From: Giardia intestinalis
Taxonomy: Eukaryota
DNA length: 64,000 nt
Strand: one strand, 5' to 3'
Assembly: GCA_000002435.2 (NCBI GenBank)
Contig: CM018793.1
How positions within the stretch are numbered: the stretch's first letter is position 1; every line of letters starts with the position of its first letter. The position numbers were made by a program, and so were the translations under genes. The notes beneath the pieces were generated by a model. It saw only the letters and a program-made list of their open reading frames with translations, did not search any database and was not told where the DNA came from. Of this stretch, positions 30,776 through 32,501 are shown piece by piece.

Positions 30776-31420
30776 TTATTTTGGAAAGCGGAAAAGACAG
30801 TTCGAGAGGGTTCTCTGAGCTTCAGAAGCTGTCCGGCCACGCTCAATGTTATCCATGGTTAGGATTAGCTTTCTGTCTGTGCTCAGTGGGGGAAGCGATT
30901 TTATCCCCTTTTGACTAACCCCTTCGCGAGCCACCCTGTGACGGCTTACGGCTGCAGTCAGAAGAGCTAACTCCTCCTCTTCATTGGCAAAGGCACCAGG
31001 GTACATCAGGGCCTGGGCAAATTTGCTTGTTTCTTCAGAGAATTCTACTGGGTCTTCAGTGAAATGAGAGGATGAGTAAAGAGTGCTATCCTCGCTGTGA
31101 GACCGCTGATTCTGTGGACAGGTGCCTATCAAAGGCTCAGTATGTAGGTGAGATTGTGGTGCTCCACGATTTAAACAAGAACTTGGAGCAGAATTCCTAG
31201 GGTCATATCCACAAGAGACTCCTCGGCGGAAGTATCTTGCCCGAGAAATCACATCCTCCTTCCCCTCTCTAATTGACTTTAGTCGGCTTCGGAGGAGTAT
31301 TGTCGATGTAGGGTCCTCGATATTCCGCGGAATGACATTCTCTGGAGGAACAACTTTAGCAATCTTCCGGCATAATGTGTTGAGGCTGAAAAGCCCCGGG
31401 TCCATTGGTTTATCTGACAT
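30776..31420 (-). CDS. hypothetical protein (214 aa); possibly the N-terminal part of the downstream 2006-aa gene
   Basis: ATG verified. Same frame as 24737..30757, separated by one TAA and six codons. Confidence 0.45.
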   Translation of the reverse strand: MSDKPMDPGLFSLNTLCRKIAKVVPPENVIPRNIEDPTSTILLRSRLKSIREGKEDVISRARYFRRGVSCGYDPRNSAPSSCLNRGAPQSHLHTEPLIGTCPQNQRSHSEDSTLYSSSHFTEDPVEFSEETSKFAQALMYPGAFANEEEELALLTAAVSRHRVAREGVSQKGIKSLPPLSTDRKLILTMDNIERGRTASEAQRTLSNCLFRFPK

Positions 31421-32501
31421 GGGGAGAGTCGGTCTGAAAGAAATCGTTTAAAATTTTGTGCAATGTGCTGATGAATGGCACCAAGACCGTATTGTCCTCG
31501 AACGCCCTATCGAGAATGTCGTTAATGCATAGAGTCAATGGCCTTCTGTCCAGCTCGTTGCACAGCACGGACAGTGACTGGTTGTTCTTAAGAGGAACAT
31601 ATGCAAACAGGCCTCCACTGTCGAAGTCTAGTTGCTTATACCACCCTGGAAAGTAGTTGTTAGCCGCCAGGTAGCCCTCTGTGTTAATCACGCTTATTGA
31701 ACGTTTTGTCCGGACAGGGTCCTTCGCATTCCTTTTCAAGACTATCTCCAGGCTCTCCATTACAGACCTCCTGAAGGTGACAAAGGAGTGTTTGGGGTAC
31801 TGACGTGTTACGTCGGACCCCAGCATCACATTAACTAAAAGGTTGGAGTTTTGGATGGCAAAGTAGTGCCCGCACTTTCTTTTATACTGCCCGTACTGCT
31901 GGATTCCAGGGGCGTTACGGCGCTCTACAGGAAAAATGCTCCTGTAGGACCCGTGAGGATCCAGCACGTAACAGCCGTTCCTGTTAGGCACCACCGGTCC
32001 GTCAAACAACAACTTGGGGTCTATGTAGTTGGTTATGAGACAATCGTCGTTTAGATAAACATAAAATTCTGACAACCCAGGTATACGGTGCAGGAAGCTT
32101 TCGATGGCGAGCGAATTTCTCGAAATGTGGTCTGAGGGGGGAATGATGGTTTTGTGATAAACATATTCGATGGGCACCTTCCACTCTGAGGACTTCAACC
32201 AGGAAATTCTCTCGCCGTTAGTGACAATGAAGACTCGTCTTATGTAAGGCATGTACCGTTCTACACCCCGCAGGGAATAGTAGAGTTCATCCATATTCCT
32301 GAAACGGTGAATGCCCTCCGCATTCAGGGTGTCCAGTTTTTGGATCGGTGCGTGATGGCCTGCAGATCCATTTACCCATGTGTACACGAGATCAATGTTG
32401 CTGCATCTGGGAAGATTGTCCCCAATTGTAATTTCATGGAATGAATGCCTGCTTCCTACGGCCACAGAAAGAATTCCGAAGAACACCCAAGCAGGGCACA
32501 T
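31410..32501 (-). CDS. Stealth-family protein (GNPTAB / capsule-phosphotransferase-like hexose-1-phosphotransferase), N-terminal signal/anchor
   Basis: CR1 [11 protein letters not shown], CR2 [31 protein letters not shown], CR3 [24 protein letters not shown]4-like CIND. ATG with an AT-rich leader (gcactaaataaATG). Confidence 0.75.
   Translation of the reverse strand: [363 protein letters not shown]

Follow-up and report, generated by a model that had tools for sequence, protein, structure and literature searches.

The Stealth family comprises hexose-1-phosphate transferases, and within it the active site has been laid out by structural and mutagenesis work on GNPTAB. In that enzyme, the uracil is stacked between Val82 and Ile388, and Asp407 contacts both the ribose and the second Mg. 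Mg1 is coordinated by Asp408 and Asn1151, Arg986 keeps the phosphate in place during its transfer, and His956 is the proposed base; the GlcNAc (N-acetylglucosamine) is contacted by Ser385, Glu389, Asn406, His959 and Gln992, and the acceptor mannose is placed by Arg322 and Asn1153 (PMC9388126). Active-site residues, including the essential Arg419, have also been described for CpsY (PMC10668966). Here we examine a gene of this family on a 64,000-nucleotide stretch of contig CM018793.1 of Giardia intestinalis (GenBank assembly GCA_000002435.2), hereafter called the window, and compare it with these enzymes. The gene is an open reading frame (ORF) of 363 codons which, together with the overlapping ORF downstream of it (ORF2), is listed with all other features in Table 1. 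In our reading, this ORF is the single-copy "SacB" gene of Giardia and codes for a genuine, minimal Stealth hexose-1-phosphate transferase that is very probably catalytically competent; for this explanation as a whole we estimate a probability of about 0.85.

The ORF product is identical (100%) to "SacB" of G. intestinalis WB (assemblage A1; XP_001706816.1, UniProt A8BIC9), and an 11-kb public contig carrying the gene shows zero mismatches against the window. The diplomonad origin proposed in an earlier reading of the locus, which was made from the letters alone and which we refer to as the sequence-only reading, is thereby confirmed, and the ORF and all peptide strings quoted there are present. 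The gene itself is not new, as that reading had implied: all annotated Giardia genomes carry it, either under the name SacB or as a protein with a Stealth CR2 domain, and Giardia has been listed among the Stealth-containing protists since Sperisen et al. 2005 (PMC1285062), so that the family assignment was already known. Nor is the family limited to bacteria and metazoa, as had been written, since it is widespread in protists and fungi (our HMMER search, see below, and PMC1285062).

Membership in the Stealth family is carried by sequence and by fold. The Pfam profile Stealth_CR2 (PF11380; CR, conserved region) scores 98.9 bits (cut-off 39.4), with positions 1-101 of its 108 aligned; this region of about 100 residues is the best conserved one in Stealth proteins and suffices by itself to recognise a member. 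A sequence search of the PDB returned Stealth enzymes only, namely GNPTAB of Drosophila, zebrafish and human and CpsY of M. tuberculosis, with E-values from 2.7e-23 to 9.5e-17; a scan of the NCBIfam profiles gave no match. For the full-length protein, an AlphaFold2 model built on an alignment of 102 sequences reached a mean predicted local distance difference test score (pLDDT) of 86.7 and a predicted template modelling score (pTM) of 0.87, and the predicted model has the GT-A-like Stealth fold, in which the four conserved regions surround a single nucleotide-sugar cavity. When this model was compared with the PDB using Foldseek, each of the best 13 matches was either CpsY or the catalytic domain of a GNPTAB, with E-values between 5e-19 and 1e-14; the next folds, generic GT-A (GT6) glycosyltransferases, came at E>2e-5 and were weaker by about 14 orders of magnitude. 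The match to GNPTAB (E=5e-19) had a query TM-score of 0.68, and that to CpsY a target TM-score of 0.80 with a root-mean-square deviation of 3.9 Å. The Giardia protein therefore belongs to the Stealth family, as the sequence-only reading had called it.

The conserved regions were mapped residue by residue onto the known enzymes, for CR2 by HMMER alignments to 7s6n and 7dxi together with the published GNPTAB assignments (PMC9388126). CR1 (in part), CR2 and the CIND tetrapeptide of CR4 can indeed be read directly, as had been claimed for all four regions, but the peptide that had been taken for CR3 consists of residues 134-153 and belongs to the second half of CR2. In the family, CR1 has the motif IDVVYTF/W near the N-terminus, CR3 measures about 50 residues, and CR4 carries a near-universal tetrapeptide, C-[LIM]-N-D, with which CIND aligns. 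The true CR3 departs from the family in every Giardia orthologue, with VRTKRSISV where FRxxxDxQ would be usual. In the 102-sequence alignment, the three CR1 columns show D in 101, V in 102 and W in 99 sequences, the His238 and Arg264 columns of CR3 show H in 101 and R in 100, and the CIND columns show C in 94, N in 91 and D in 80. More generally, D37, V39, W42, R66, S130, I133, E134, the PGLSE of residues 141-145, N151, D152, D153, H238, R264, C325, N327 and D328 are each found in 80-102 of the 102 sequences.

In terms of GNPTAB, V39 (CR1) corresponds to the uracil-stacking Val82, and the CR2 residues R66, S130, I133, E134, N151, D152 and D153 correspond to Arg322, Ser385, Ile388, Glu389, Asn406, Asp407 and Asp408; of these, I133-E134 include a sugar contact, and N151-D152-D153 are ligands of sugar, ribose and Mg2+. 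His238 corresponds to the proposed catalytic base His956, Arg264 to Arg986, which in CpsY is Arg419 and keeps the beta-phosphate in place, and Asn327 to Asn1151, a ligand of Mg1 and the beta-phosphate. Seen from CpsY, E305, N322, D324 and R419 are E134, N151, D153 and R264. All residues shown to be catalytic by mutagenesis of GNPTAB or CpsY (E134, N151, D152, D153, H238, R264 and N327) are thus kept. Between G. intestinalis lineages, the ratio of non-synonymous to synonymous substitution rates (dN/dS) of the gene is about 0.07, indicating strong purifying selection. On the grounds of these conserved residues and this constraint, we take the protein as an active hexose-1-phosphate transferase, and predict it to be very probably competent in catalysis.

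The protein starts with a hydrophobic stretch of about 12 residues (Kyte-Doolittle means of 2.43 over 11 and 1.15 over 19 residues), and the G. muris orthologue has a similar short segment. This stretch had been described as an anchor; it is there, but since it spans only about 12 residues it fits a signal peptide better, and judged by hydropathy the segment is more probably cleaved off as a signal peptide than kept as a transmembrane anchor. In a third lineage of the G. intestinalis complex, the start called for the Stealth gene (L005 5986-6003) misses the first five codons; an ATG ahead of it in the same frame, at ATGTCCGTTAAATGGATG, would restore a protein of 363 residues with the same N-terminal hydrophobic segment. 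Hydropathy showed no C-terminal hydrophobic or transmembrane segment, neither in the G. intestinalis nor in the longer G. muris protein, and a Pfam scan found CR1 and CR2 only, and no LNR/Notch, DMAP, EF-hand or spacer modules. The architecture is a bare catalytic core of 363 residues with short spacers, and the label "GNPTAB-type" of the sequence-only reading does not suit it.

Assemblages A1, A2, B and E all have an orthologue, and so do one further lineage (77% identity), G. muris (527 residues, 49% identity) and a G. muris-like organism (536 residues, 51% identity). The order of an NMNAT-like gene, the Stealth gene and a large P-type-ATPase-like gene is constant across Giardia (assemblages A and B, the third lineage and G. 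muris). The gene stands between Giardia genes, with synteny kept in five Giardia lineages, and was met in 181 assembly blocks; the guanine-plus-cytosine content around it (0.45-0.49) is the same as in the rest of the window. The gene is therefore neither a contaminant, which absence from other assemblages had been named as a sign of, nor a recent transfer, and it has been inherited vertically within the genus.

The second subject of this report is ORF2, a Giardia-specific ORF that begins within the end of the Stealth ORF. The fused Stealth proteins of G. muris and the G. muris-like organism are longer by about 165-175 residues, owing to a C-terminal extension (about 190 residues) that is hydrophilic and without a transmembrane segment, and ORF2 is a colinear homologue of this extension over its whole length (BLASTP E=6e-13 for G. 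muris and 5e-11 for P0004). Both share the C-terminal motif LLxAAxxRxxxxRxGV...LPPLxxDRKLILxMDNIER and a second conserved block near the N-terminus. Assemblages A and B and the third lineage of G. intestinalis all keep the 11-nucleotide overlap and the +1 frame. Between homologous anchor points there are 106 nucleotides (1 mod 3) in the G. intestinalis lineages, compared to 105 and 102 nucleotides (0 mod 3) in the fused genes, so that a net indel of one nucleotide accounts for the difference. What G. muris carries as part of its Stealth protein is thus encoded in G. intestinalis by a separate, overlapping ORF, an arrangement that seems not to have been remarked before and that may have come about by fission or by fusion, there being no outgroup. 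ORF2 is under purifying selection (dN/dS 0.15-0.19). It contains no Pfam domain, no homologue outside Giardia was found in homology searches, and hydropathy gave no signal peptide or transmembrane segment. AlphaFold reached an uninformative pLDDT of 36 for the fused G. muris protein on a shallow alignment of eight sequences; deep combined alignments put the ORF2 rows onto the Stealth domain and were not used. In G. muris, the stop of the fused gene overlaps the next gene (1723 residues) by 11 nucleotides as well (L002 7574-7584), an equality of length that may be a coincidence or a gene-calling artefact.

Inside the Stealth coding sequence, 24-42 nucleotides upstream of the ORF2 ATG, lies the AT-rich 19-mer TGCACAAAATTTTAAACGA, the longest run identical in the three lineages over the 1.73-kb alignment of both ORFs, although its identity is only modestly beyond chance (rough estimate, p about 0.1 gene-wide). 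The invariant ATG of ORF2 and the invariant TGCACAAAATTTTAAACGA fit an independent, Giardia-style promoter within the Stealth ORF, and we infer that the 19-mer is a candidate promoter or initiator of ORF2.

Several points weigh against our reading of the protein as an active Stealth transferase of the secretory pathway. The profile search for CR1 to CR4 that had been suggested as a check recovered CR2 but not the others. With 24.0 bits against a cut-off of 27.2, CR1 remained below threshold and matched only positions 3-13 of its 29-position profile, since the motif breaks off after its first half and lacks the second (DPxW); CR3 (PF17102) gave no match even at E<=1, and CR4 gave none, with weak, sub-threshold matches of 17.8-19 bits at the place of CIND in the G. 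muris-type orthologues. Residues 99 and 126 are isoleucine in WB (32203-32205 and 32122-32124), at positions where the family has near-invariant prolines (96/102 and 98/102); G. muris has valine at the first and has kept the proline at the second. On the sugar side, Asp990 and Gln992 of GNPTAB are replaced by Ser268 and Ser270, and the place of His959 is taken, by spacing alone and in a column that varies across the family, by Val241. With such replacements, donor specificity and even full activity would not be guaranteed. Signal-peptide cleavage and the luminal location are both deduced from hydropathy only, and our literature search found no functional study of the Giardia Stealth protein, that is, no enzymatic, localisation or expression data. 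The name "SacB" was not found in the supplements of papers on the Giardia encystation transcriptome, strand-specific RNA-seq and organelle proteomics, whose tables may be truncated or may use gene identifiers only. The divergent CR3, the failure of the CR3 and CR4 models, the two lost prolines and the incomplete CR1 are what could be expected of an inactive relic, e.g. a pseudo-enzyme that binds nucleotide sugars or acts like a lectin. We consider such a relic improbable, given that every residue essential in GNPTAB or CpsY is kept, that dN/dS is low and that the confident model shows the full fold. If the protein is active, it could be asked whether it is a functional GNPTAB orthologue that starts a mannose-6-phosphate-type tag for sorting to the lysosome-like peripheral vacuoles; the top PDB matches in sequence and fold are GNPTAB catalytic domains, the N-terminal segment is of a secretory type, and Arg66 is the counterpart of the acceptor-side Arg322, a residue that is conserved, but family-wide. 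However, the N-glycans of Giardia are GlcNAc2 and contain no mannose (PMC2924369), which excludes the classical role, where the acceptor is the 6-OH of a terminal mannose on high-mannose N-glycans; the sequence-only reading had itself remarked that Giardia is not known to use mannose-6-phosphate sorting. The mannose-positioning Asn1153 is Ile329 in Giardia, in a column that is variable in the family; the LNR, DMAP, EF-hand and spacer modules and the C-terminal transmembrane segment are missing, whereas the GNPTAB-like matches in our searches do carry PF00066; the fold match to CpsY is about as good as that to GNPTAB; and in Giardia acid phosphatase, which is a soluble hydrolase, is sorted by way of a Vps10p-like receptor (PMC3423367). 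A mannose-6-phosphate function is thus hardly credible.

Coming back to the Stealth transferase as an inherited Giardia gene, the remaining alternatives concern its origin and its relation to ORF2. A bacterial capsule-type gene gained by horizontal transfer would be in line with the compact architecture of about 360 residues and four regions, like that of bacterial single-domain Stealth enzymes, and with the many bacterial proteins of about 310-330 residues among the top database matches (Mangrovibacterium, Alistipes, Rahnella). In a neighbour-joining tree (102 sequences, 291 columns, 100 bootstraps), which is compatible with an ancient transfer as well as with vertical descent, Giardia forms a long monophyletic branch whose sister is unstable; P0072 takes this place in 57% of the replicates, probably by long-branch attraction. 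The mean distances to eukaryote-labelled (1.79) and bacterium-labelled (1.82) sequences are, however, equal, the closest full-length identity outside Giardia is about 25-30%, leaving no close donor, and the protein bears a eukaryotic-type signal sequence. When 1.84 billion cluster representatives were searched exhaustively with HMMER, using a profile built from five Giardia sequences, 7086 Stealth family members were obtained, among which Giardia scored 639-722 bits and the bulk at most 130 bits. An intermediate tier of 140-225 bits was rejected as a set of close relatives, as all of its members, eukaryotic and bacterial, have two to three tandem Stealth domains in one polypeptide, which inflates whole-protein scores by summing; the tandem-domain proteins (P0152-P0160) come from Anaeromyces, Piromyces, the diplonemids Rhynchopus and Artemidia, an oomycete (a GNPTAB-like protein), Rikenellaceae and an alphaproteobacterium. 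No relative outside Giardia was thus closer than the general family background among these representatives, and the horizontal acquisition suggested by the sequence-only reading finds, as a recent event, no support in this search or in the tree. Contamination being ruled out by the synteny, the assembly blocks and the base composition described above, we regard a bacterial origin as unlikely. As to ORF2, it could still form one polypeptide with the Stealth ORF by programmed +1 frameshifting at the overlap: it lies in the +1 frame with an open window of just nine codons upstream of its ATG, and assemblage A has CCC-C and TTT-C as potential +1 slip sites. Separate translation would place the two halves in different compartments, and yet ORF2 is constrained; its G. 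muris counterpart follows the signal-bearing Stealth domain with no transmembrane segment in between. The slip sites nevertheless vary over the three lineages (CCC-C, CCC-A and CCA-A; TTT-C, TTC-C and TTT-A), as do the last codons of the Stealth ORF and its stop, which is TAA or TGA, whereas the ORF2 ATG and the 19-mer are invariant, as expected of a gene that is transcribed and translated independently. Frameshifting hence appears quite improbable to us. A +1 frameshift or a mini-intron joining the two ORFs was rejected as the primary interpretation, with no conserved slip site or splice motif found. Translated separately, the ORF2 product, which bears no signal peptide, would be left in the cytosol, while the counterpart in G. 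muris comes after a luminal domain that carries the signal.

For the active Stealth transferase, the following course of events can be proposed by analogy with GNPTAB. By means of its short N-terminal signal sequence, the enzyme would enter the lumen of the endoplasmic reticulum and the secretory pathway and would bind a uridine diphosphate (UDP) sugar there. The N-acetylhexosamine (HexNAc) nucleotide sugars of Giardia are UDP-GlcNAc and UDP-GalNAc (GalNAc, N-acetylgalactosamine), and these would be the likeliest donors. The uracil would lie between Val39 and Ile133, the ribose would be held by Asp152 and the sugar by Ser130, Glu134, Asn151 and His238; Asp153 and Asn327 would hold Mg2+ or Mn2+ on the diphosphate, and Arg264 would neutralise the beta-phosphate. 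His238 would then deprotonate the acceptor hydroxyl for a one-step attack on the beta-phosphate, with uridine monophosphate leaving and the sugar-1-phosphate ending in a phosphodiester linkage on the acceptor. Such a mechanism, in one step and dependent on metal, is the one proposed for GNPTAB.

Since the N-glycans are only GlcNAc2, the acceptor is not N-glycan mannose; candidates would be serine or threonine of proteins, by comparison with protist phosphoglycosylation, or else a HexNAc residue or a glycolipid. The most likely function, by the same analogy, would be the transfer of HexNAc-1-phosphate, or of another hexose-1-phosphate, from a UDP-sugar to a hydroxyl group other than that of mannose in the secretory pathway. 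A more specific proposal, which we make tentatively and with the odds somewhat against it, is an undescribed HexNAc-1-phosphate modification of serine or threonine on secretory, surface or cyst-wall proteins, of the GlcNAc2 N-glycan, or one priming or capping the GalNAc polymer of the cyst wall. The luminal Stealth enzyme would carry it out together with ORF2 as a Giardia-specific partner, joined to it in G. muris but separated by the one-nucleotide indel in the G. intestinalis complex. Our literature search found no paper that links Giardia with phosphoglycosylation and no phosphodiester-linked sugar reported from Giardia. The family assignment adds nothing new; the value of the locus lies in the biochemical question of a phosphodiester-linked sugar, as a constrained and apparently active sugar-1-phosphate transferase resides in an organism with mannose-free N-glycans and no described phosphoglycan. 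If the enzyme is active and constrained, as it appears, a product that nobody has looked for must exist. The split and fused gene pairs of G. intestinalis and G. muris, moreover, provide a ready comparison by which an accessory module specific to a lineage could be approached.

Table 1 Features of the Stealth locus in the window and of related loci. Positions are those of the window unless a locus (L002 to L005) is named.
Feature	Position	Strand	Remarks
Stealth-family hexose-1-phosphate transferase gene (SacB)	31410-32501	minus	363-residue ORF
N-terminal hydrophobic segment	32454-32501	minus	residues 1-16; from hydropathy
CR1	32364-32399	minus	residues 35-46; family-invariant D37, V39, W42; partial Pfam CR1
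CR2	32001-32306	minus	residues 66-167; Pfam CR2 E=2.5e-28
True CR3	31668-31808	minus	about residues 232-278; divergent; keeps His238 and Arg264
CR4 core tetrapeptide CIND	31518-31529	minus	residues 325-328; HMMER-aligned to CINDNLD / CLNDNID of GNPTAB
AT-rich 19-mer TGCACAAAATTTTAAACGA	31444-31462	minus	candidate promoter or initiator of ORF2
ORF1/ORF2 overlap	31410-31420	minus	11 nucleotides; Stealth stop TAA 31410-31412; ORF2 ATG 31418-31420
ORF2	30776-31420	minus	214 residues; Giardia-specific; +1 frame relative to the Stealth ORF
Divergent intergenic region	32502-32645		144 bp, shared with the NMNAT-like gene; AT-rich AAATAAATG at the Stealth start
NMNAT-like cytidylyltransferase-fold protein	32646-33395	plus	PF01467, 45 bits; syntenic across Giardia
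654-residue protein	33421-35385	minus	signal-like N-terminus; C-terminal hydrophobic stretch; weak match to the NAD-nucleotidase (NadN) C-terminal domain
2006-residue ORF	24737-30757	minus	multiple hydrophobic segments; E1-E2 ATPase Pfam 28.6 bits (cut-off 28.1) over 39 residues
Fused gene, G. muris	L002 6001-7584
Fused gene	L003 3573-5183
ORF2	L004 7082-7720
ORF2	L005 7067-7717

The Myb2-type encystation element C[TA]ACAG is absent from the 144-bp region upstream of the Stealth gene in assemblages A and B, which is weak negative evidence; as far as this region goes, no tie of the gene to encystation is seen. Downstream of the stop codons of both ORFs, the canonical Giardia poly(A) signal AGTRAAY was not found; such signals are loose in Giardia (PMC3610916), so that its absence carries no information. 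Among the neighbours, two genes of the nicotinamide adenine dinucleotide (NAD) salvage type, NMNAT-like and NadN-like, adjoin each other beside the Stealth gene. The Pfam match of the 2006-residue ORF on the other side is marginal; the ORF codes either for a giant P-type-ATPase-like protein that has diverged very far, or for no ATPase at all.

Compared with GNPTAB, the Giardia protein has the same fold, the same order of CR1 to CR4, the same donor-binding and catalytic residues and a probable luminal orientation. It differs in its size (363 compared to 1256 residues), in the lack of the insertions (spacer-1/RRM, two Notch/LNR repeats, DMAP and EF-hand), of the alpha/beta cleavage that site-1 protease makes in GNPTAB and of the flanking transmembrane helices, and in a CR3 that is too divergent for Pfam. 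With CpsY of M. tuberculosis (PDB 8J2N) and bacterial single-domain Stealth enzymes it shares the compact four-region core with short spacers, but these are cytoplasmic, are encoded in polysaccharide loci and are only about 21-23% identical to it. Unlike the bacterial capsule polymerases SacB/CsaB, CsxA and CpsY, the Giardia gene is nuclear, codes for a signal-like N-terminus and is flanked by unrelated housekeeping genes of Giardia. SacB (CsaB) of N. meningitidis serogroup A resembles it as a Stealth enzyme that forms sugar-1-phosphate phosphodiester linkages (PMC1285062). The Giardia name SacB is an annotation transfer from this capsule polymerase, and there is no sign of a ManNAc-1-P (N-acetylmannosamine-1-phosphate) polymerase or of a capsule; SacB levansucrase of Bacillus is unrelated to the Giardia protein.

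No specific orthology with the enzymes of Dictyostelium or Leishmania was found in the tree or in the HMMER search. For the GlcNAc-1-P-Ser system of Dictyostelium and the Man-1-P-Ser phosphoglycans of Leishmania, Stealth enzymes have been proposed (Sperisen 2005) that would work in the secretory pathway of unicellular eukaryotes on acceptors other than those of the mannose-6-phosphate pathway, and such protist phosphoglycosylation would be the most plausible functional analogy for the Giardia enzyme. If its product were found, phosphoglycosylation as in Dictyostelium, Leishmania and Entamoeba would be extended to the metamonads and could concern the surface or the cyst biology of the parasite.

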